Of a stretch of 32,486 nucleotides of DNA, positions 2,561 through 22,083 are shown one piece after another. Position numbers and translations under genes: made by a program. Below the pieces are notes generated by a model. That model saw nothing but the letters and a program-made list of their open reading frames with translations. It was not told the DNA's origin and searched no databases. The DNA comes from Escherichia phage IMM-001, in the sequence record MF630922.1; one strand, 5' to 3'. How positions within the stretch are numbered: the stretch's first letter is position 1; each line of letters starts with the position of its first letter.

Positions 2561-2736
2561 AATTCAAGCAAAGTAACCCTAAGCTGCAAGCCAACCACTT
2601 CGATGGCTACTCAACATTCATTATTGCACAGGCTTGCGGAATGCGTGATGAACCTCAGGTTCACACCATCCACTTAACCGAGGAGCAGGCTAGAGAACTC
2701 GCTTATGAAATTCTTGAGCAATTGAATAAGATTTAA
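2557..2736 (+). CDS. hypothetical small protein (59 aa, below threshold)
   Basis: ATGA overlap with upstream stop; ends just before the RBS of the HNH gene. Confidence 0.35.
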   Translation: MKFKQSNPKLQANHFDGYSTFIIAQACGMRDEPQVHTIHLTEEQARELAYEILEQLNKI

Positions 2737-2745
2737 GGTGATAGA

Positions 2746-3111
2746 ATGAAATTAACAAAGTTACAAAGAGATGAACTAAAGTTTAAGCTAGGTGGATTCT
2801 GCGCATACTGCGGCTGCGAACTCGGTGATAAGTGGCATGCTGACCATATGAAGCCAGTAATCAGGTATGATGGTAAAATGGTGCACGATGAGCTTGATAA
2901 TATTTCGAACCTTGTCCCGGCGTGCCACGCTTGCAATCTGCATAAGCACTGCAATAGTGTGGAGGATTACCGGAGAATTATTGACGATGGTAGGCGGGAG
3001 TTTTTGGCATCCGGCAAGGGTAAGGCGCTCGTTCGCATGGGGCTGGTTGATATGAAGATGGATGATATTGTGTTCTGGTTCGAGAAGTTTGAGAAATTGA
3101 ATAAGATTTAA
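2746..3111 (+). CDS. HNH endonuclease (121 aa)
   Basis: Cys pairs CAYCGC and CHACNLHKHC with HADH...N...H spacing typical of HNH nucleases; RBS aaggtg. Confidence 0.8.
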   Translation: MKLTKLQRDELKFKLGGFCAYCGCELGDKWHADHMKPVIRYDGKMVHDELDNISNLVPACHACNLHKHCNSVEDYRRIIDDGRREFLASGKGKALVRMGLVDMKMDDIVFWFEKFEKLNKI

Positions 3112-3902: not shown

Positions 3903-4134
3903 GATTAAGTCATTAATGTTTAAGGTTGGAATCCTACATAAGCATAAATATAGATTATTTCGACGCATAAATTGGTATGAGGACGAATATCAGGATGGGT
4001 GCAGGACAAAACTAATCTGTACAGTTTGCGGGAAGATTTTTAACTCAAAGGTTGACCTAATGGTTTGCAAAAGCACGCTGGATTTCATTAGATATGAAAA
4101 AGAGATTGCATCACTTAGGGGTTTTAATGGATAA
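3895..4134 (+). CDS. hypothetical Cys-rich small protein (79 aa), possible zinc ribbon
   Basis: Internal ATG 3895 overlapping upstream stop; CRTKLICTVCGKIF...C cysteine pattern. Confidence 0.4.
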   Translation: MNKIKSLMFKVGILHKHKYRLFRRINWYEDEYQDGCRTKLICTVCGKIFNSKVDLMVCKSTLDFIRYEKEIASLRGFNG

Positions 4135-5142: not shown

Positions 5143-5667
5143 ATGAAAGACGAAAACTTCAGCAGCACAGCACAAGAAAAGGTTAGCTCTGGAAACTTTA
5201 AAGCCATGTACAACAAAAAGTATTCTGACATTACAACGCTAGCCAAGAACCGAATTATGACACCAGAGCAGCTATTTGACATTGCTGTGAAATACTTCTC
5301 TTGGGCAGAAGACCAGGCAATCAAGGCAATTGAAACCGCTAGCTTCCAGGGTGTTGTCACTGAAAACCTGGTGCACAAGCCTAGAGTATTCACGCTAACT
5401 GGATTCTGCCTTTACTGCGGCGTCACCCATAGCGCCATCGAAAAATGGAGGAAGTCTGCTGGTTATGACGAGGTAATTGCGTTCATTGATTCCGTTATTC
5501 GTGAGCAGAAATACCAGCTAGCAGCATCTGGCATTGTTAACCCAGGCATGATTTCCAAAGAACTTGGCATCGACAAGCCACAGGAGATTAACATCACCAG
5601 CACATCTTCAGCTAATGACGTCGACACAATGAAAGAAGCGCTGGAGTCGGTAATTAGTAAACTGTAA
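5143..5667 (+). CDS. putative terminase small subunit (174 aa)
   Basis: Position directly upstream of large terminase, size, RBS aaaggagg; no motif check possible. Confidence 0.5.
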   Translation: MKDENFSSTAQEKVSSGNFKAMYNKKYSDITTLAKNRIMTPEQLFDIAVKYFSWAEDQAIKAIETASFQGVVTENLVHKPRVFTLTGFCLYCGVTHSAIEKWRKSAGYDEVIAFIDSVIREQKYQLAASGIVNPGMISKELGIDKPQEINITSTSSANDVDTMKEALESVISKL

Positions 5668-5683: not shown

Positions 5684-7252
5684 ATGTCTAATTTAGTTTG
5701 GGAGGAAATGACGTCAGCCGAAAAGATGGCGGTTAAGGCAATATCAACTCATAGCTTTGAGGGTTTTCTGAGGGTGTGGTTCCAACTGACACAGGGCGAG
5801 CGGTACATCCCAAACTGGCATCATAAATACCTTTGCAGGATAATTGACGAGATTATCGCTGGTGAGCGTAAGGACACCATCATTAACGTCGCTCCCGGTA
5901 GTGGAAAGACAGAAATTGCCTCAATCCACTTTCCAGCATACTCGATGGTTAAGCTGAAGAAGGTCAGGAACCTTAACATATCGTTTGCCGACTCACTGGT
6001 TAAGCGTAACTCCAAGCGAGTGCGTGACTTAATTAAGTCGGTTGAGTTCCAGGAGTTATTCCCATGCAAGTTTGGCACATGCAAGGATGATGAGCTACAG
6101 GTTCTGGATGAGTCTGGCAAAGTACGGTTTGAGTCAATCTCCAAGGCTGCTGGAGGCCAAATCACCGGCGCGAGGGGCGGCTATATAACCGATTCATATA
6201 GTGGCGCGGTTCTGTTAGATGATTTTGACAAACCAGCCGATATGCTTTCTGCCGTGTTCCGCGCAAACAATCACGTGATGCTAAAGAACACCATCCGCTC
6301 TCGTAGGGCTAGCTCAGTTAAAGGTAAAGCAACTCCGATTATCTCTATTCAGCAGCGACTTCACGTCAACGATAGCACGTGGTTCATGATGAATGGAGGT
6401 ATGGGTATCAGCTTCGATTTGATTAAGATACCAGCGCTAGTAACTGAAGATTACGTGGATACACTTCCTGACTGGATTAAGCAGCAATTCATTGATGACG
6501 TTCTATCAAGCGAATATATTGAGCGTGACGGCGTGAAATATTACAGCTACTTCCCAGAAAAGGAGTCGGTTAACGACCTGGTAGCAATGTGGGATTCAGA
6601 CAGCTATACATTCCTTAGCCAGTATCAGCAGGAGCCTGTAGCGCTTGGTGGTAATCTGATTAATGTAGAATGGCTCCAGCGCATTAGCGACACTCTGCGA
6701 CCGCCAGCTAAGTATGATTACAGATTCATGACTCTTGATACCGCCATGACAACAAAGTCATACAGCGACTTTAGTGTACTGCAACTTTGGGGTTATAAGG
6801 ATGGGAAGATTTACCTGCTTGACCAGCGACGAGGTAAGTTTGAAGCGCCGGAGCTAGAGGCTGAGTTATTGGATTTCGAGAAGATAGCAAGGGCATCCAA
6901 TCAGACAGATGGTATCCTTCGTAAAATCATCATCGAGAAGAAAGCCTCTGGCATCGGGCTGATTCAATCGGTAGGTAGGGTTATGCGGACACCAATCGAG
7001 CCATATGTGCCAGATAACGACAAGCTAACTCGCGTAATGAGTGCACTGCCTCAGATTAAGGCTGGTAACGTTATCCTGCCTGAGTCTGCAACATGGCTAA
7101 ACGGATTACTAACGGAGATTGCGGCATTCACGGCAGATGACTCGCATGTTCATGATGACCAGATTGACTGTTTAACTATGGCTGTCAACCTTGTTCTAAA
7201 CATTGCAGAGGATCCTAAATCAAGGATGATGAGATTAGCAGGAATCAAATAG
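5684..7252 (+). CDS. terL: terminase large subunit (522 aa)
   Basis: Walker A-like VAPGSGKTE near N-terminus, size and position before portal. Confidence 0.88.
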   Translation: MSNLVWEEMTSAEKMAVKAISTHSFEGFLRVWFQLTQGERYIPNWHHKYLCRIIDEIIAGERKDTIINVAPGSGKTEIASIHFPAYSMVKLKKVRNLNISFADSLVKRNSKRVRDLIKSVEFQELFPCKFGTCKDDELQVLDESGKVRFESISKAAGGQITGARGGYITDSYSGAVLLDDFDKPADMLSAVFRANNHVMLKNTIRSRRASSVKGKATPIISIQQRLHVNDSTWFMMNGGMGISFDLIKIPALVTEDYVDTLPDWIKQQFIDDVLSSEYIERDGVKYYSYFPEKESVNDLVAMWDSDSYTFLSQYQQEPVALGGNLINVEWLQRISDTLRPPAKYDYRFMTLDTAMTTKSYSDFSVLQLWGYKDGKIYLLDQRRGKFEAPELEAELLDFEKIARASNQTDGILRKIIIEKKASGIGLIQSVGRVMRTPIEPYVPDNDKLTRVMSALPQIKAGNVILPESATWLNGLLTEIAAFTADDSHVHDDQIDCLTMAVNLVLNIAEDPKSRMMRLAGIK

Positions 7253-10698: not shown

Positions 10699-10926
10699 AT
10701 GAGATTAAACATGGCTTACACCGAAGTTAAGGCTATTAGTGCAGATAGCGGTCGATTCAATACACTGCTTCAAGCCGCCATCGATGGTGGTTTTCAGCCA
10801 GTAAGTAAAATCACGGTAAATGGCTCACAGTCATATTCCATCGTCGTAGCAAAAGGCGCTGACAGTTCAATCACTGAAGCGAATGATCACCTCCACCAAT
10901 ATGCGCAAGCTGTTCGAAGCTGTTGA
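10699..10926 (+). CDS. hypothetical protein (75 aa)
   Basis: ORF in terminator/promoter-bounded cassette; overlaps next ORF in +1 frame. Confidence 0.35.
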   Translation: MRLNMAYTEVKAISADSGRFNTLLQAAIDGGFQPVSKITVNGSQSYSIVVAKGADSSITEANDHLHQYAQAVRSC

Positions 10927-11398
10927 AGCTGCGTCTGATGATGGCTTCACAATTGATACGTCAAGCCTGAGTCTATCATCAGGTCAGTTCTTTGCTTATG
11001 CATATAAAGGCAGTGCTGGTGGTTCTGTTTCTGTGGCGTGGGGAGACGTAACTGGCAAACCAACCACCTTTGCGCCAATTGTCGGCACTGGTGCGACCCA
11101 AGCAATGGCTGGCAATAAGACGCTGGCTAACATTGGTGGCGTAGTTCCCTTGTCTGGCCTTCCTATTGCAAGCACCACTGCCGCTGGCATTATCCAGATT
11201 GGCACTGGCGCAACTAACGCAATGCCGGGTAACAAGTTTGTTGCTGGCGCGGCGGTTGCTAACGTTACTGCTCAGACCGTGACTGGTGCTGATGCCGAAG
11301 CGGTGGCAACCTCAGCTACCACAGCTGTTAACGAAGTAGCCACCAAGTTAAACGACCTTCTCGCACAGCTGCGAGTCGCCAAGATCATCGCGGGCTAA
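10883..11398 (+). CDS. Gly/Ala/Thr-rich repeat protein (171 aa), possible fibre/decoration protein
   Basis: Internal direct repeat GTGATQAMAGNK / GTGATNAMPGNK and helical C-terminus; start uncertain (10883 or 10901). Confidence 0.35.
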   Translation: MITSTNMRKLFEAVEAASDDGFTIDTSSLSLSSGQFFAYAYKGSAGGSVSVAWGDVTGKPTTFAPIVGTGATQAMAGNKTLANIGGVVPLSGLPIASTTAAGIIQIGTGATNAMPGNKFVAGAAVANVTAQTVTGADAEAVATSATTAVNEVATKLNDLLAQLRVAKIIAG

Positions 11399-11424
11399 CG
11401 CCAAGCTGGCGGATAACTCACCTG

Positions 11425-11452
11425 TTGATTTGTGGTCGCCATGCTGTATAAT
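11425..11452 (+). promoter_or_regulatory. Sigma70-like promoter (TTGATT, 16 nt, TATAAT) upstream of major capsid gene
   Basis: Near-consensus hexamers. Confidence 0.55.
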
Positions 11453-11490
11453 TGACTCGTACATACATAACTGAAAAGGAATAAACAAGA

Positions 11491-12432
11491 ATGGCCATTA
11501 AATTTGATGCAGAACAAGCAAAAATCACCGCTCACCTTGAGCAAATGGGTGTAGATAAGGCTGATGCTGCTGGTATCTGGACCGTTAAGCAGTTGACCGC
11601 GAATCTGGCGCGCGCTTACGAAGCAGAGTATTCGGAAAACTCCGTAGTTAATATCTTCCCTGTAACTAACGAAATCCCAAGTCACGCAAAGTATTTTGAG
11701 TATCCTGAGTTTGACGGAGCAGCAATTGCACAGATTATCGCTGAATACTCTGATGACCTGCCGCTGGTTGATGCGTTCATGACCGAGAAACAAGGTAAAG
11801 TGTTCCGCTTCGGTAACGCATTCCTGATCTCCATCGACGAAATCAAAGCAGGTGCAGCAACTGGTCAGTCACTGTCATCTCGCAAACAGGCTCTGGCATT
11901 CGAAGCGCACGATAACCTGCTTGATAAACTTGTATGGTCTGGCTCTGCACCGCACGGCATTCCTAGCGTATTCAATGCGCCGAACGTTAACCAGGTTGTT
12001 GCTGGTACTTGGAACTCCGCGGCTGCTGCTATGACTGACATTACCGCTCTTATCGATGCTATCGAAACAGCGACCAATGGCGCTCACACCGCGACTGATA
12101 TCCTGCTTCCAGCTTCCGCTCGCCGCCTGATGCAAGAATTGGTGCCGAATACCTCTATCAGCTACGCGCAGTTGTTTGCAACCAATAACTCCGGCATCAC
12201 TTTGCGCTATCTGCAATTCCTGGACAACTACGACGGCGCAAACGGCAAAGCTGCACTGGCATTTGAAAAAAATCCGTTAAATCTTAGTATTGAGATTCCA
12301 GAAGTTACTAACGTACTTCCGGGCCAACCGAAGGATTTACATTTCAAATACCCGGTGACTTCAAAGGCTACAGGCTTGATTTTATATAGGCCGCTAACTG
12401 TTTCCGTACTGAAAGGCATTACCTACGCCTAA
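11491..12432 (+). CDS. major capsid protein (313 aa)
   Basis: Size, position, own promoter and terminator; not motif-verified. Confidence 0.6.
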   Translation: MAIKFDAEQAKITAHLEQMGVDKADAAGIWTVKQLTANLARAYEAEYSENSVVNIFPVTNEIPSHAKYFEYPEFDGAAIAQIIAEYSDDLPLVDAFMTEKQGKVFRFGNAFLISIDEIKAGAATGQSLSSRKQALAFEAHDNLLDKLVWSGSAPHGIPSVFNAPNVNQVVAGTWNSAAAAMTDITALIDAIETATNGAHTATDILLPASARRLMQELVPNTSISYAQLFATNNSGITLRYLQFLDNYDGANGKAALAFEKNPLNLSIEIPEVTNVLPGQPKDLHFKYPVTSKATGLILYRPLTVSVLKGITYA

Positions 12433-12452
12433 TGGCACTAAATGACAAAACA

Positions 12453-12481
12453 ATACCACCGAAAGGTGGTATTTTTGTTTT
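12453..12481 (+). terminator. Rho-independent terminator
   Basis: ataccacc-gaaa-ggtggtat then T-rich run. Confidence 0.75.
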
Positions 12482-12507
12482 AACACAACGCTAATAGTGG
12501 TGCGGTT

Positions 12508-12981
12508 ATGGAATTTTCAGATTATATAGTTTACGACAATGGGAAGTTACGCTGGAAGAAGAAGACAGGGAGGTCAACCCAGATAGGCAAGGAGATAGGA
12601 ATAAATTCAGGGAGCGGATACCTTACATTCAAGTTTTATGGTAAAAGATACAAAGTCCACAGGGTTGTGTGGATGATAATGGTTGGGCCAATACCTGATG
12701 GTATGGAAACTGATCACATAAATCATGTTCGAGACGATAATAGAATTGAGAATCTCAGGCTTGTATCAAGGATTGAGAACATGAAGAACAAAAGCGTTTA
12801 CAGAAGCAACTCTTCCGGATTTTGCGGGGTTAGTGTCAAAAGCAGCGGCATGTACCACGCCTACATACAGTTTAATGGGAAGCAAGTAAACCTTGGTTTA
12901 TTTAAGGAAAAGCAGGATGCAGTAACGGCAAGATTGGAGGCAGAAATGGTTTATGGATTTCATGATAATCATGGGTTATAA
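12508..12981 (+). CDS. HNH homing-type endonuclease (157 aa)
   Basis: ETDHINHVRDDNRIENLRLVSRIENMKNK motif; free-standing between capsid and neck genes. Confidence 0.8.
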   Translation: MEFSDYIVYDNGKLRWKKKTGRSTQIGKEIGINSGSGYLTFKFYGKRYKVHRVVWMIMVGPIPDGMETDHINHVRDDNRIENLRLVSRIENMKNKSVYRSNSSGFCGVSVKSSGMYHAYIQFNGKQVNLGLFKEKQDAVTARLEAEMVYGFHDNHGL

Positions 12982-13013
12982 TCAACCATCAATTAATAAA
13001 AGTGGAGCAACAA

Positions 13014-13259
13014 ATGATTCGTTTAGAACACACTGGCGCGTGCATGATTACCTTTCGTGGTGTGAATTATATGCCAGGTGAATTCATCGAGGTCGAGGAA
13101 ATTAACGCTGGACTTAAGAGCTTGATTGCAGAAGGCCGCTTGCAGATTGATGGCGACACCAAAGCAACTAAAGAAATTGCCGCAGAGGTTAAAGCAAAGT
13201 CTAAGCGCAAAGAACCGAAGACCATTGACGAAGCTCAGACTGGTCAGGAATATAAATAA
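13014..13259 (+). CDS. hypothetical protein (81 aa)
   Basis: ATG 13014 with RBS agtggag; ORF-track start 13002 is GTG. Confidence 0.4.
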   Translation: MIRLEHTGACMITFRGVNYMPGEFIEVEEINAGLKSLIAEGRLQIDGDTKATKEIAAEVKAKSKRKEPKTIDEAQTGQEYK

Positions 13260-13264
13260 CCAAA

Positions 13265-13287
13265 TGGGCGCTTCGGCGTCCGTTTTT
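13265..13287 (+). terminator. Rho-independent terminator
   Basis: gggcgc-ttcg-gcgtcc (one G-U) then T5. Confidence 0.55.
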
Positions 13288-13300
13288 GCATGGGGGTTTT

Positions 13301-13696
13301 ATGAACGAACAAGCATTGGCATTTATGAGATCACTGGTTCCAGCTTTGCGTAACGTTCCAGATGAAACGCTGGACGCATGGCTTGAACTGGCTAAACTTT
13401 ACATCTGCGCTAGTAAGTTTGGTGACGATGCTTACAAGGCGCTGGCGTTATACACTCTGCACATTGCCTTTCTTGATGGCGCGCTTAAGCAGAATGGGTC
13501 GCTCGATGATTATGGGAAGAAAATTGCAAGTTACTCCCTGAGCGGTGAATACTCTATCAGGCATGAATCCACCTCGCAAACACAATCATCAATGACAGCC
13601 ACCCCGTGGGGTAGGCTTTACTGGAACCTCCTGCGTAAGAAAGGTGGCGGTTTTGGCTTTATTACGTCCGCTGGGCGTGGGTGCGGTTGCCGATGA
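13301..13696 (+). CDS. putative head-tail connector protein (131 aa)
   Basis: Position and size; ATG 13301 chosen over TTG 13286. Confidence 0.35.
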   Translation: MNEQALAFMRSLVPALRNVPDETLDAWLELAKLYICASKFGDDAYKALALYTLHIAFLDGALKQNGSLDDYGKKIASYSLSGEYSIRHESTSQTQSSMTATPWGRLYWNLLRKKGGGFGFITSAGRGCGCR

Positions 13697-14064: not shown

Positions 14065-14494
14065 AAACATTGGTGGGGTAGCTACATTTACGAATAGTAT
14101 TGCTGATTGGATTGATAGGGCTGATTCTAATGTGTCTGAAGTTGTGTCTGGCACTGTTATTAAAGCAGCTAACGCCATTGTTGATTTATCTCCCGTTGAT
14201 ACTGGTAGGTTCAAAGCCAACTGGCAGATTACCGCTAACTCACCAGCTGCGCAGTCCCTGAATGAGTACGATAAAACTGGTGGCGATACGAAAAGATATC
14301 TGGCAAGGCAAGCTCAAGCAGTTGCTAACTCACCAGCAACAAAGGTTATCTACATAACCAACAGGCTTGATTACGCTTCTGACCTTGAATACGGTGCATC
14401 GCAGCAAGCTCCGGCTGGTGTTCTTGGGGTTGTAAATATCAGGCTTGGACGGTACTTCGAAGAAGCTGTTGCTGAAACAAGGAGTAAACGATAA
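14048..14494 (+). CDS. putative neck/tail completion protein (148 aa)
   Basis: Position-based. Confidence 0.35.
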   Translation: MLPMARNIGGVATFTNSIADWIDRADSNVSEVVSGTVIKAANAIVDLSPVDTGRFKANWQITANSPAAQSLNEYDKTGGDTKRYLARQAQAVANSPATKVIYITNRLDYASDLEYGASQQAPAGVLGVVNIRLGRYFEEAVAETRSKR

Positions 14495-14892
14495 TGCAGT
14501 ATGAGCTATCTTTAGCAGCAAGGAGGTTTGTGACTGATTTGGTTAAAACGTTTCCAGTCAGGTACCCAATCTCATACGAAAACGTGGCCTTCTCTCCACC
14601 AAGCAATGGAGGTATGTGGCTGAAATACGATTACACAGAGGCCGATACGGTAACTTATAGCTTGAGTCGAAAGTGCAAATACTATGTTGGCATGGTTCAG
14701 GTGTCTGTATTTTTCTCACCAGGTGATGGTGTTGATAGTGCAAGGAGAATTGCTAATCAATTGGCAGAATCAATGCTTGATGGTACAATGCTTGACACAG
14801 GCTACATTTATGAGGGTGGGGTAGTTCACCCAGTAGTGAAGTCAAAATCTGGCTGGTTTATTCCAGTTCGTTTCTATGTTCGTCTTGACTAA
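14494..14892 (+). CDS. putative tail terminator protein (132 aa)
   Basis: Position just before major tail protein. Confidence 0.35.
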   Translation: MQYELSLAARRFVTDLVKTFPVRYPISYENVAFSPPSNGGMWLKYDYTEADTVTYSLSRKCKYYVGMVQVSVFFSPGDGVDSARRIANQLAESMLDGTMLDTGYIYEGGVVHPVVKSKSGWFIPVRFYVRLD

Positions 14893-16626: not shown

Positions 16627-19599
16627 ATGGCAACTAACGAAATTGCTGGTATCACGCTAGCCGTCGACGTCGCTCAGGTCGATAGAGGTACGCAGTCCTT
16701 ACAGAAATTCAGGCAAGCAAACGAGCAAGCTGCAACAGGCATTAATAGCTTCGTTAATGCTGAACTTGTAGCCAAGACTCAAGCAAGGGATACAGCAAGG
16801 CAGCTTGAGGAGCAGCGAAAATCTTTCGCATCGCTTCAGCAAGTAATCGACCCAACTGCTGCTAAATTCCAGAAGTTGCAGAAAGCGGCAACCGAATTGG
16901 ACAAAGCATTTGAGTCTGGGCTGGTTCCTGATGATGAGTTCTTCAGGCTTGGCTCTGTTATTGAAACTCAAATTAATAAGCTAAACAGGTCCAGGGCTGC
17001 GTTGAGTGAAGAGGGTAGGGCTGCACTCCAAGCTTCAATAGATAAAGAAAAAGCAACAGCAACCGCGCAAAAGTTCATTCAATCCCTTGAGAACGAGGCG
17101 AATGCGGCAACTCTCACAAGGACTGAGCTGCTTCAACTTAAGGCTGCTCAGCTAGGCGTTAGCGACCAAGCGGCACCGATTATCGACAGGATTGGTAAGG
17201 CCGCTGAGGCGTCAGCAGTTCAATTGCAGAAGCAAAGCTCAGCTTTTGTTAAGTCAGGTTTAAGCGCAGGGCAGTACAAGCAAGCAATACGACAGCTCCC
17301 TGCTCAGATTACAGATATCGGAACCTCACTTGCTGGCGGCATCCCAATCTGGCTGATTGCAATTCAGCAAGGCGGTCAGATTAAGGATAGTTTCGGCGGT
17401 ATTGCGAACACGGCAAGGTTTGCACTTGCGGCCATTAATCCATTGACAGCTGTTGTTGGTACTTTGGGGCTGGCTCTTGGTGCTCTTGGTGTTGCAGCTT
17501 ATCAGGCTGATAAGAACACTCGCGGACTAGCATCAACGATAACGCTTGTTGGCAATTCAACTATCACTTCAACGGCACAGATAAATCAGGTTGTTGACGG
17601 GATTGAGAAAACAACATTAGCCACGCGCGGTCTTATTCAGGAAATAGCAAATAGTCTGGTAGCAAACGGTAATCTTACGCTTACGCAGATAGATAAGATA
17701 ACCAAGGCAACAGCGCAGTGGGCGACTGTAACATCAACCGACTCAAAGACTATCCTTGGATACTTTGACCAGATCACAAAGGACCCAATAAAGGGACTTA
17801 CTGACCTTGATAAGCAATTTAACTTTCTTCAGTATGGGCAGTTAAAATATATTGAGAATATCAGGAAGACGGCTGGAGAAACAGAGGCAGTAACCGCAGC
17901 CACTGAACTATTCGCTGAAGTTATGGAAAATAGGCTAGCAGACGTAGCGCTAAGCCTCAACCCTCTTGAAAGCGCGTGGAATAGCTTCAGGAAGTTTGTA
18001 AGTGAGATCTTGGATGACATCAGCAAAAGGACGCTTGGGGCCCTTAACTTAATAACTGACGTTGTTGCTGGTACGATTGAGCAGATAAGGTCACTCATAA
18101 ACTCCGGCGACATTCTCTTGGGTGAGTTTGCTATAGCAGCAACCAAGACGCTTCAGTCAATACCCGGCCTTGGTGATATAGGTAATGAGGCAATTGCTGA
18201 GCAGCAAAAGATTGTTGATGCAGCCAAGAAGCAAAATGAGGAGTTAGCAAAAAGCATATCTGAGCGAGATGCTAGAATCAGGAAGGGTGAGCTTGGCTAT
18301 GTGGAGAGAAATAATAACACTAACCTGAATGGAAATAATGCATCAACTGATAAGGAGTTCGGAGCAAGGAAGAAGGCCCTAGCAGACGAGCTTGATGCCA
18401 TAATGAAGGCTAGAAGGGAGAGGAACAAAGCTGTAAAAGAAGAAAGGGATTTAACCTTATCTTATGAATCTGGCGTTCTTGCACTTCAGGCTCAATTGAA
18501 GGTTTTGCAAGAGCATAGAACGATAAACGATGTAATAAGCAACGAGCGCAAGCAGCTATTTCAGGAAGAGGCTAAGTTTGCAATACTCGAGCAAAGATAT
18601 GCTGATGGTAGCCTAACCAAGTCTCAAGCCAAACTGCTCTCGCAGAAGGATATCATTCTTGAACAGGCTAAACAGAAGGCTGAACTAGGAGATCAGATTG
18701 TTCTTCAAGAGAGGTCAAACAAGTTACTTGATGATAACCTAAAGAAGACTGTTCAGATTACAAATGAGGCAAATAATGTTTCTCTTGCTGCTAATTTATC
18801 TGACAGGGAGAAGCAAAGGGCGAAAGAGCTTCAGGCGCTTCAATCCAATCAGTTAAACAAAGGTGGCTCTGTAGATGACGCTGATTTCCAGGCTTTACTG
18901 GAAGCAAGGCGTAATTTTTATGCTCAAGAGGACGCGCTACGTGAAAACTGGCTAGCCGGTGTGCAGTCATCATTCGCTAATTGGGCAGAGAGCGCGACAG
19001 ATGCATTTTCTATAGCTGGTGAATTGACCACTTCCGTGTTTACCGGAATTACAGAGCAGATTACCAGCCTTGTAACAACTGGCACGGCAGACTTCAGGAG
19101 CTTTACCGTTGAAATCCTGAAACAGATTGCCAAGATTGCAACACAGCTCTTAATTGTTAAGGCGATTGAGTCAAGTTTAAGCAGCTTCGGCGGAACTGGC
19201 GGCGCTATTGGTTCAATTGGTGGCGCGCTTGGCTTTGCTGGCGGTGGATATACTGGTGATGGAGGTAAGTACCAACCTGCCGGAACTGTGCACAAAGGTG
19301 AATTTGTTTTCACCAAAGAAGCAACCAGCAGGATTGGAGTCAAGAACCTGTACAAGCTTATGCGAGGTTATGCAAATGGCGGTGCTGTTGGTGGGCCATC
19401 TGGTTATGCTAATGGTGGTGCTGTCGGCGGTACTAATGTCAGTGTTGGCGGCGTTACTGTTAACGTAAATTCTGGAATCGGTGGCGGCAATGATGCTAAG
19501 GCTATAGAATCTGGAGTTAAGGTTATCGTGGCTGAGGAAATCAGTAAGTCATTCCAGCAGGGCGGCAGGGCGTATCAGTTCTTGCGCGGTTACAACTAA
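16627..19599 (+). CDS. tail tape measure protein (990 aa)
   Basis: Long helical protein with hydrophobic central segments and Gly-rich C-terminus, after chaperone pair. Confidence 0.85.
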
Positions 19600-19630
19600 T
19601 TAATGGGGCTTCTGCCCCTAAGGATTTAAA

Positions 19631-19981
19631 ATGGCATTGCAAACATTCAATTGGTGCTTAAACGTACTCAATGGCGGCTCTTCATTTACCAATGCCAACA
19701 ATATTAGGGTTGTATCATTTGGTAATGGTTACCAACAGCGTGGCACTGGAGGATACAGGACGAACAAGAGGACGTATACTGTTAGCTACGTTGGCCGTGA
19801 GTGGGAGGCAGTAATGAACTTCTGCCTTGATCACATCGTAAAACCTTTCGCATGGACTACGCCACAGGGTGAGTTAAAGATGTTTGTTATTCAGCAGGAT
19901 AGCATTAGCGTCTCGCCGAGCACAAAAGAAGTTCAGACTGTTAGTATGCAATTTACTGAAGTTTTCACTTCAATGAGTTAA
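19631..19981 (+). CDS. minor tail protein, lambda M-like (116 aa)
   Basis: Position and size after tape measure. Confidence 0.55.
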   Translation: MALQTFNWCLNVLNGGSSFTNANNIRVVSFGNGYQQRGTGGYRTNKRTYTVSYVGREWEAVMNFCLDHIVKPFAWTTPQGELKMFVIQQDSISVSPSTKEVQTVSMQFTEVFTSMS

Positions 19982-21533: not shown

Positions 21534-22083
21534 AGTTAAATTGGGCCTTTCGCTTGGTAGGAGGTATGGAAAGATTCACGAACTATGTGTCGAGTCTGTA
21601 CCGGAGGCGCTTAGGGCGTTGTCTGTAAACATTCCAGCATTCAAGGAATTCATGCAGAGCCATGTCGGGCAGAATACAAGGTTTGCAATCTTTGCAGATG
21701 GCAAAAACCTAAACGAGCATCGCATCAAAGACTTTAAGGCCGTAAAGGAGATTCGCATCATGCCAATCCCTCAAGGACGAAAGAGTGGTGGGTTGTTCCA
21801 GACTGTTTTGGGTGCGGCGCTAATTACTATTGGTGCATTCACCGGACAGGTTTATCTTGTTGCGGCAGGTGTTTCACTCGCAGCTGGCGGCGTAGCTCAA
21901 TTACTGTCACCTCAAGCAACAGGTCTTAAAAGCCAGGAGTCTGCACAAAACAGGGCTTCTTACGCATTTGGTTCGGCGGTTAACACGGTTGCTGCTGGAT
22001 ACCCGGTATGTCTGCCATACGGTTATCGAAGTGTTGGTGGCTCCGTATTTAGTGCTGGCAGTTACGCTCAGGATATTGCATAA
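21517..22083 (+). CDS. tail assembly protein, lambda I-like (188 aa)
   Basis: Hydrophobic C-terminal half, position between K-like and J-like; ATG 21517 with RBS gaaggag. Confidence 0.55.
   Translation: MQRLIKVKLGLSLGRRYGKIHELCVESVPEALRALSVNIPAFKEFMQSHVGQNTRFAIFADGKNLNEHRIKDFKAVKEIRIMPIPQGRKSGGLFQTVLGAALITIGAFTGQVYLVAAGVSLAAGGVAQLLSPQATGLKSQESAQNRASYAFGSAVNTVAAGYPVCLPYGYRSVGGSVFSAGSYAQDIA

Follow-up and report, generated by a model that had tools for sequence, protein, structure and literature searches.

A probable free-standing HNH-AP2 homing endonuclease gene at the capsid/head-completion gene junction of Escherichia phage IMM-001

Between the gene for the major capsid protein and the first head-completion gene (DUF7444) of Escherichia phage IMM-001, a T1-like coliphage and siphovirus of the family Drexlerviridae, lies a gene that encodes a protein of 157 amino acids (aa). 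In the sequence record the product is labeled merely 'hypothetical protein'. The DNA that was analyzed is a stretch of 32,486 nucleotides (nt) of IMM-001 (record MF630922.1), in the following called the window, and all positions refer to this stretch unless another genome is named. Protein family comparisons, a structural model, and the comparison with related phages were used to characterize the gene, and it is described here as a probable homing endonuclease gene that is free-standing and of the HNH-AP2 type. It is the sole open reading frame (ORF) of at least 40 aa across the interval 12453..13014 when both strands are counted, i.e., no ORF of at least 40 aa was found on the opposite strand of this interval. 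With 40%, the content of guanine and cytosine is lower in the HNH gene than in the capsid gene (48%) and in the window as a whole (44%).

The protein matched the Pfam family HNH_3 (PF13392) at aa 48-92 with 69.1 bits, at a cut-off of 24.8 and with an expectation value (E) of 2.5e-19, and it also matched PHROG 99 ('HNH endonuclease') with an E of 8e-61. Both matches are far beyond chance. The original prediction, which had placed a 157-aa HNH protein between the capsid terminator and the next structural gene, was thus borne out by the HNH_3 match and by the terminator that was found at 12452..12481. HNH_3 was the only type of Pfam hit, and the whole protein contains one cysteine. The family is very large: 104,062 cluster representatives were counted at E <= 1e-3, and the phage records number 3,674. 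No protein of the GenBank phage collection is more than 53% identical to the window allele.

The window protein was aligned with 60 full-length homologs, and all 61 aligned sequences match HNH_3. D69, H70, N82, N94, G107, and A138 are invariant in this alignment, and H51, W55, N78, L83, R84, and N91 are conserved in at least 90% of the sequences. D69/H70, N82, and N91 align to D74/H75, N87, and N96 of I-HmuI, which serve as general base and metal ligands in that enzyme. The AlphaFold2 model of the protein had a mean predicted local distance difference test value of 91.5, and it contained no segments below 50. In the modeled layout, N-terminal hairpins are followed by the beta-beta-alpha core of aa 66-92, with predicted strands at 66-70 and 83-87 and a predicted helix at 88-92, and then by a sheet of three strands with a helix (aa 108-149). 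The top fold match of the model in the PDB was I-HmuI (1u3e), with a probability of 1.00, 94 columns, and a root-mean-square deviation (rmsd) of 3.1 A.

The C-terminal part was assigned with the aid of the family. Pfam AP2 was detected in 33 of the 61 aligned homologs, with a best E of 9e-9. When the family profile was compared with the PDB, its first 98 positions matched I-HmuI (E 2.5e-10), and positions 99-150 matched plant AP2/ERF structures, i.e., WRI1 (2.7e-8), TEM1 (5e-5), and AtERF1 (0.025). With the window sequence alone, the match of the N-terminal approximately 100 residues to I-HmuI had an E of 0.018. In the model, the C-terminal sheet and helix superpose on the GCC-box domain of AtERF1 (1gcc) with a target template modeling score of 0.72 and an rmsd of 2.2 A. 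Because of the HNH_3 match and of the AP2 evidence from homologs, family profile, and model, the product is assigned as a two-domain HNH-AP2 protein, with a predicted I-HmuI-like HNH domain with intact catalytic residues and a predicted AP2-type C-terminal domain.

A pitfall for automated annotation was also noticed. The hairpin motif YxxxxNGKLxWK at aa 6-32 (12523..12603, + strand) gives rise to spurious PDB hits. Matches to the designed 'Bagel' and 'Cake' beta-propellers, with E down to 2e-17, were rejected as an artefact of this short motif being scored against repeats; the single stretches are insignificant.

The features of the locus are listed in Table 1. Among the records of the GenBank phage collection, Escherichia phage phiA2-1 (Drexlerviridae, Braunvirinae) is the nearest, with 85% nucleotide identity around the site. 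The window capsid protein is 96.8% identical to GP04 of this phage and the DUF7444 protein is 96% identical to GP05 (both at the aa level); the next gene encodes a DUF4054 virion protein. The start of the DUF7444 gene was set to the ATG at 13014 and not to the GTG at 13002 that is given in the ORF list, because the alignment with the 81-aa orthologs agrees with the former. According to the terminator scan, the hairpin upstream of the HNH gene (12452..12473) has the sequence AATACCACC-GAAA-GGTGGTATT and is followed by TTTGTTTT. The spacer between the terminator and the HNH ATG has a length of 26 nt and contains the Shine-Dalgarno (SD)-like sequence GGTG at 12499..12502, 5 nt ahead of the ATG. 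The gene had been predicted to have its own ribosome-binding site (RBS); an SD-like sequence is indeed present, but it is weak, whereas the orthologs have the stronger sequences GGAGG or GAGGG. A promoter scan between the terminator and the HNH ATG did not find a promoter-like site.

The HNH stop codon (12979-12981) falls within a TATAAT box. This box (consensus GGTTATAATCA) lies approximately 30 nt ahead of the DUF7444 start, is kept in every allele, empty or occupied, and forms the right edge of all insertions. The box may be the -10 element of a late promoter, but a promoter scan found no acceptable -35 element at it. The spacer between the HNH stop and the DUF7444 ATG comprises 32 nt and contains a good SD sequence, GGAG, at 13004..13007.

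Table 1. Features at the capsid-adjacent site of the window, with their positions and the evidence for them.
Feature	Position	Strand	Evidence and details
Major capsid protein gene, 313 aa, directly upstream	11491..12432	+	PF09950, E 3.1e-36; phrog_264, E 1.3e-83
3' part of the capsid gene with raised divergence, next to the cassette; candidate for co-conversion and/or target-immunity polymorphisms	12191..12432	+	Mismatches versus phiA2-1
Segment replacing intergenic DNA of phiA2-1	12434..12970	+	Alignment of occupied and empty alleles
Intrinsic terminator, class II, leader A	12452..12481	+	Stem 12452-12460/12465-12473, loop GAAA, T-tract 12474-12481; terminator scan, RNA fold
Weak SD-like stretch GTGGTGCGG before the HNH start	12497..12505	+	Sequence
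Free-standing HNH-AP2 endonuclease gene (predicted)	12508..12981	+	ATG start, 157 aa; HNH_3 match, full-length alignment with 60 homologs, model
Beta-beta-alpha-metal (HNH) catalytic core, aa 66-92 (predicted)	12703..12783	+	D69/H70, N82, N91; alignment and model
C-terminal AP2/ERF-like DNA-binding domain, aa 104-149 (predicted)	12817..12954	+	Homolog matches, family profile, model
TATAAT box, right junction marker	12977..12982	+	Alignments of empty and occupied alleles
DUF7444 gene, 81 aa, structural operon, downstream	13014..13259	+	PF24231, E 4.9e-20; SD GGAG 13004-13007

Two further observations concern the start region of the HNH gene. First, in the predicted RNA fold of 12434..12503 the sequence GCACUA at the left junction pairs with UGGUGC over the weak HNH SD, so that the RBS of a read-through transcript would be occluded. 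A role of this pairing (left-junction GCAC with GGUGC at the SD) in sequestering the RBS was rejected, as it is not conserved in the Rao1 allele and in the leader-B alleles that are described below. Second, a near-identical phage from the run SRR25011036 (locus L092; 2 differences in 601 nt) carries the gene as well, and for this phage the gene caller gives a product of 100 aa that starts at M58 (2501..2803 of L092). This short product (99% identity) was considered as a sign of decay and was ruled out as such: the full 157-aa frame is open, and the only changes are Q25K and M146R. The short call and the label 'hypothetical protein' are annotation weaknesses that result from the poor RBS.

The site was compared across related phages, for which 80 loci were collected via the capsid protein and annotated records and metagenomic contigs were added. 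In comparison with phiA2-1, a segment of 537 bp of the window replaces approximately 49 bp of the empty allele, i.e., the native terminator and a spacer; in the whole-genome comparison, positions 12433-12962 of the window correspond to positions 3915-3957 of phiA2-1. The terminators downstream of the capsid gene were grouped into class I, the type of the empty alleles, and class II, the other type. In the empty (class I) allele, the capsid stop codon is followed by TAATAAAT, the hairpin GCCCTC-TTCG-GAGGGC, a T6 run, ACGTCTGTACCAAATGGATTTGTTG, GGTTATAATCA, the SD sequence, and the ATG. In the window and in all other occupied alleles, the capsid stop codon is followed by (A/G)GCAC..., another hairpin, a run of T, an SD sequence, the HNH gene, and the same TATAAT box. 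The HNH stop codon is located inside the box (GGG TTA TAA TCA) in the window-type lineage, including locus L007, and in the Rao1 lineage, and upstream of it in phiEB49.

Among the loci with a capsid identity of at least 60%, all 12 with a class I terminator are empty and none is occupied by an HNH gene. Seven of the 8 loci with a class II terminator are occupied, and a single one (JLA23) is empty. An additional locus of this group, L015, has an unclassified terminator and an empty site. All 68 distant T1-like loci, with a capsid identity of about 50%, are empty as well, and none carries an HNH gene at this site. The 12 precise empty loci include those of phiA2-1, IME542, DTL, and Rtp, and the junctions are defined within a few bases. 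An alignment against relatives that lack the insertion had been proposed together with the original prediction, and it has now yielded these 12 loci, among them phiA2-1 with its 97% identical capsid protein. A gene present in all relatives, with no empty-site alleles, would have looked different: 12 loci are empty.

The occupants of the site are diverse. Occupants of the window type, with 157 aa, are found as orthologs in metagenomic loci, with 78% aa identity in L093-96 and 69% in L097-99, and they share the same 3' junction. The occupants of L007 and Rogue1 (gp23) have a length of 161 aa and are 48-50% identical to the window protein and 61% identical to each other. Longer proteins are found in phiEB49 (gp51, 174 aa), in Sd1 (gp43, 196 aa), and in Rao1 (gp18) with its equivalents in CY1 (CY1_00051), TR2, and TR3 (198-202 aa). 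The occupants of phiEB49, Rao1, and Sd1 are 30-39% identical among themselves and to the remaining occupants, and their identity to the window protein is 32-37%. The comparison of six occupants thus revealed at least four HNH lineages in the same intergenic site. Among these six, the nearest same-site occupant (L007) is 50% identical to the window protein, and HNH proteins at unrelated sites reach 52-53%, i.e., those of the Klebsiella phages KpV2811 and KP591P1 in the early-gene block (53%) and that of ETEP102 beside a helicase gene (52%). The capsid-adjacent HNH genes of the Drexlerviridae (Rogue1, phiEB49, Sd1, Rao1/CY1, L007, and L093-L099) resemble the window gene in the site, which extends from the capsid stop codon to the TATAAT box, as well as in the family and in the domain plan. 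A difference lies in the leader type, A or B, which is shuffled independently of the ORF lineage.

The leader A hairpin has the sequence ATACCACC-GAAA-GGTGGTAT and is found in the window, in the Rao1 group, and in L093-96. The leader B hairpin, GCACCC-TTCG-GGGTGC, is found in phiEB49, L007, L097-99, Sd1, and Rogue1, so that both leaders occur together with the window-type ORF lineage. In the phage collection, leader A is present in 4 records only, and each of them has an HNH gene at the capsid-adjacent site. Leader B is the native terminator of the capsid gene in the Rogunavirinae, it is also found in the HNH-less phage JLA23, and leader A is homologous to it. When JLA23 is compared with phiEB49, the insertion reads clean, between the T-run and TAGCTATTGA-TATAAT. 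On backbones with a capsid-protein identity of at least 80%, every occupied allele has the Rogunavirinae-type terminator and not the usual one. Thus, the 'capsid terminator' of the original prediction is present upstream of the HNH gene, but it is not of the type found in the closest HNH-less relatives.

This foreign-type terminator of HNH-bearing genomes with Braunvirinae-like capsid genes is most simply explained as a donor flank that was copied in together with the HNH gene. At first it was considered as an intrinsic part of a mobile cassette, because leader A occurs only together with HNH genes; this reading is weakened by the homologous leader B, which is native to the Rogunavirinae and is also found in JLA23 without an HNH gene. 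A co-converted donor flank is the better reading. The explanation is consistent with the rise in divergence at the 3' end of the capsid gene. When the gene is compared with that of phiA2-1, 46 of the first 700 positions (6.6%) and 44 of the last 242 (18%) differ, a three-fold higher density, and most of the mismatches are synonymous. On the right side of the insertion, the flank is 90-95% identical to phiA2-1 at once.

Presence and absence of HNH genes are reciprocal between IMM-001 and phiA2-1. In phiA2-1, the HNH gene GP15 is located between the tape-measure and minor-tail genes, where the window has a junction of 97 bp (19575..19672), and the HNH gene GP21 is located between the tail-assembly and fiber genes, where the window has a junction of 5 bp (22077..22082). 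The proteins encoded at these two tail sites (locus L085, 10670..11140 and 14275..14763) are 40-42% identical to the window HNH protein. The two phages thus carry genes of the same family at non-overlapping, precisely bounded sites. In genome comparisons, a reciprocal pattern with such precise borders is the hallmark of free-standing homing endonuclease genes, and the two tail sites are further HNH hotspots. Two other differences in gene content were seen: a Rha-like gene at 12312..12809 of phiA2-1 is missing from the window, and the metagenomic locus L096 has a further HNH_3 gene (2591..3056) after the tail-terminator gene, at a place where the major tail protein gene of the window follows at once (14905..). 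This is one more variable HNH site of the structural operon.

On these comparative grounds, the intergenic gene behind the capsid gene is probably a free-standing homing endonuclease gene with HNH-AP2 architecture. The capsid/DUF7444 junction appears from the allele comparison as a real, but ordinary, homing-endonuclease hotspot. The original prediction of a homing endonuclease at a recombination hotspot is thus supported by comparative genomics, i.e., by the empty sites, the four or more lineages, the reciprocal sites, and the intact catalytic residues. The gene is free-standing, since the capsid and DUF7444 genes are both full length and uninterrupted. A scan of 11400..13400 against Rfam, with E up to 1, did not find a match to any family, introns included, and an endonuclease encoded within a group I intron was ruled out by the zero Rfam hits together with the intact flanking genes.

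The gene and its product share features with several characterized systems. In T4, mobE has no promoter, is limited by a terminator, nicks a neighboring conserved gene, and co-converts its flanks (PMC2790892). MobE and the other free-standing Mob and Seg endonucleases resemble the window gene in their location between conserved genes, the absence of an own promoter, and the gating by a terminator, and their products likewise begin with an HNH domain and have a variable C-terminal DNA-binding domain (PMC2790892). Also in the case of MobE the adjacent conserved gene is polymorphic, consistent with co-conversion or immunity (PMC2790892). In contrast to the window protein, the DNA-binding domain of these enzymes is not of the AP2 type, and the putative homing gene of the window resides in a different phage family (Drexlerviridae). 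I-HmuI of the Bacillus phage SPO1 (PDB 1U3E), which nicks DNA, resembles the window protein in the N-terminal approximately 100 residues and in the catalytic Asp-His, Asn, and Asn residues. It differs in that its gene lies within a group I intron, whereas the window gene is free-standing and intergenic, and in that its C-terminal DNA-binding part stands in place of the AP2-type domain.

The same architecture of HNH followed by AP2 is known from homing endonucleases of phages, cyanobacteria, and protists (ref. 45 in PMC10448857). It has been documented that genes of homing endonucleases accumulate in the vicinity of capsid genes and can replace each other at a single locus (PMC10448857). The IPA-HNH genes of ICP1-like phages, like the window gene, adjoin essential genes such as the capsid gene, and also there different endonucleases are interchangeable at a locus (PMC10448857). 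The IPA-HNH domains are too divergent for the Pfam model HNH_3 (PMC10448857); the window protein, in contrast, has a canonical HNH_3 domain, and its AP2 domain is the divergent part.

From T4 MobE and SPO1 I-HmuI we infer a homing mechanism by analogy, with a predicted nuclease activity and a predicted target. The HNH protein would be made at a low level via read-through of the terminator of the capsid operon, in analogy with the promoterless and terminator-limited MobE. During co-infection, the AP2 domain and the N-terminal sheet would recognize the target in an HNH-less relative. A candidate target is located at or near the 3' end of the capsid gene or in the class I intergenic sequence, which the IMM-001 genome does not contain. 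The HNH core would nick or cut the HNH-less genome at this candidate target, and recombinational repair from the HNH-bearing genome would copy the HNH gene, the terminator, and some flanking capsid sequence into the recipient.

Several observations weigh against this explanation. The residence at the capsid-adjacent site looks old in the lineages of the window, L093, and L097, and largely vertical, i.e., it does not look like a recent invasion, because the divergence of the HNH orthologs (76% and 68% at the nt level) is about that of the flanking genes. Owing to the weak RBS, the expression of the HNH gene is uncertain. Pfam AP2 was not detected in the window sequence alone, which is too divergent for the Pfam model. 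When the phage collection was searched for a possible donor of the diverged 3' part of the capsid gene, nothing closer than phiA2-1 at 82% was found, and this part could also be due to ordinary phage mosaicism.

The selection data bear on a further explanation, a retained or domesticated nuclease that benefits the phage by excluding or degrading co-infecting relatives or satellites, or by driving the adjacent capsid allele. For the window gene and its ortholog in L093, the proportions of nonsynonymous (pN) and synonymous (pS) differences are 0.14 and 0.67, respectively; the ratio of nonsynonymous to synonymous substitution rates (dN/dS) is 0.09 for this pair and 0.15 for the same-site orthologs of L093 and L097, and these ratios are rough, dS being near saturation in the comparisons of the HNH orthologs. 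For the capsid gene, dN/dS is 0.07-0.09 and thus similar. The values clearly point to an HNH protein that is maintained under purifying selection. This strong selection, which is comparable to that on the capsid gene, would be expected for a domesticated nuclease, as would the co-divergence with the flanks in the L093 and L097 lineages, and homing endonuclease 'islands' around essential cargo as well as the co-option of domains in the conflict of phages and satellites are known (PMC10448857). However, the gene is missing from the closest relative and from most relatives, other relatives carry different HNH lineages in its place, and purifying selection is equally expected for an actively homing element in a site-polymorphic population. 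A beneficial role is thus compatible with the selection data, and its traces in the sequence would look the same as those of active homing. In addition, it overlaps the homing mechanism rather than opposing it. As the sole explanation for the gene it is considered rather unlikely.

A more specific, tentative proposal is a long-lived partnership, in which the HNH-AP2 gene and the replacement terminator would form a module that drives the 3' end of the capsid gene, possibly the whole capsid allele, by gene conversion through mixed populations of Braunvirinae and Rogunavirinae. The proposal draws on purifying selection that matches the selection on the capsid gene in strength and on a terminator that restores the displaced regulatory element, and we regard it as conceivable, but doubtful. 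If it is true, the HNH gene would be the 'driver' of an essential-gene cargo across subfamily boundaries.

It is very improbable that the gene is an inactive remnant of a homing endonuclease, with an open frame but no cutting activity, that is heading for deletion. The weak SD and the promoter that was not found would agree with a remnant, and so would the AP2 domain below Pfam detection in the window allele and a Tyr in the window in place of the consensus 'KW' Trp of the AP2 region, a position outside the columns that are conserved in at least 90% of the sequences. Against this stand the full length of the protein in comparison with the family, the presence of all catalytic and most near-invariant residues, the confident two-domain model, and the excess of pS over pN in the comparison with orthologs, which is unlike that of a decaying gene.

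The homing interpretation was also compared with a function in DNA packaging. The original prediction had mentioned that some HNH endonucleases assist terminase, and the location of an HNH nuclease in the late structural region could fit such a helper, as exemplified by HK97 gp74 and the cos-adjacent HNH endonucleases, which like the window protein are small phage-encoded nucleases of the HNH superfamily (PMC3592412). The cos-adjacent enzymes that assist terminase typically have an HNH core (PF01844) with paired CxxC zinc-binding motifs (PMC3592412). The window protein is of the HNH_3 subfamily, has no such CxxC motifs, and carries an AP2 domain of a sequence-specific type, and its gene adjoins neither terminase nor a cos site. 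A distance of 5.2 kb, with the four genes for portal, protease/scaffold, decoration, and capsid proteins, separates it from the large terminase gene upstream (5684..7252; the other terminase gene is at 5143..5667). It is absent from viable close relatives (phiA2-1, IME542, and others) and is thus dispensable. The terminase-helper role was therefore rejected on position, subfamily, and dispensability, and the remark on terminase does not apply to this gene; the idea has next to no credibility left.

Hardly any weight is given to an AP2 regulator of the downstream head-completion and tail operon that acts via the TATAAT box, with the nuclease being secondary: the AP2 fold is present according to the profile and the predicted model, and the stop codon lies inside the universally conserved box in the window-type (including L007) and Rao1 lineages, but it precedes the box in phiEB49, the catalytic residues of the HNH core are conserved, HNH-less relatives retain the same box and operon, and a scan found neither a -35 element nor an operator repeat.

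With respect to annotation, the 'hypothetical protein' of IMM-001 can be annotated as a putative free-standing homing endonuclease of the HNH-AP2 type. The capsid/DUF7444 junction is worth flagging as a probable recombination hotspot when T1-like phages are compared, classified, or engineered. IMM-001 and phiA2-1 form a natural reciprocal pair for the analysis of homing, co-conversion length, and marker exclusion in the Drexlerviridae, a family for which, to our knowledge, no homing endonuclease of the HNH type has been characterized. Conceptually, the locus adds nothing beyond what is known from T4 and ICP1 phages, and the gene belongs, as an ordinary case, to a class that is very large and well known. 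Of modest interest are, in addition, the occupancy of one site by several lineages, the foreign terminator linked to the HNH gene, and the natural reciprocal pair.

Two additional observations were made elsewhere in the window. The homolog of phiA2-1 GP03, which is a single ORF of 190 aa in that phage, is split at 10699..11398 (+ strand) into the overlapping ORFs 10699..10926 and 10883..11398. The two ORFs are in different frames, with a switch near 10880, and the near-identical phage of the run SRR25011036 was also called as having two genes. The split could represent a real frameshift, a programmed frameshift, or a shared assembly error. The region contains an internal duplication of about 39 aa, in which GTGATxAMxGNK is repeated.

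The second observation concerns another HNH gene, which had been noted at 2746..3111 (+ strand) in the original prediction. It is real, with a match to PF01844 at E 8e-7. It encodes a zinc-type HNH protein with two CxxC pairs (phrog_2118), is unrelated to the capsid-adjacent HNH gene, and is missing from phiA2-1. Its closest relatives, with 77% aa identity, are found in Stx2a-converting and ArgO145 lambdoid phages and not in T1-like phages. It lies about 2 kb ahead of the small terminase gene and resembles an independent horizontal acquisition.

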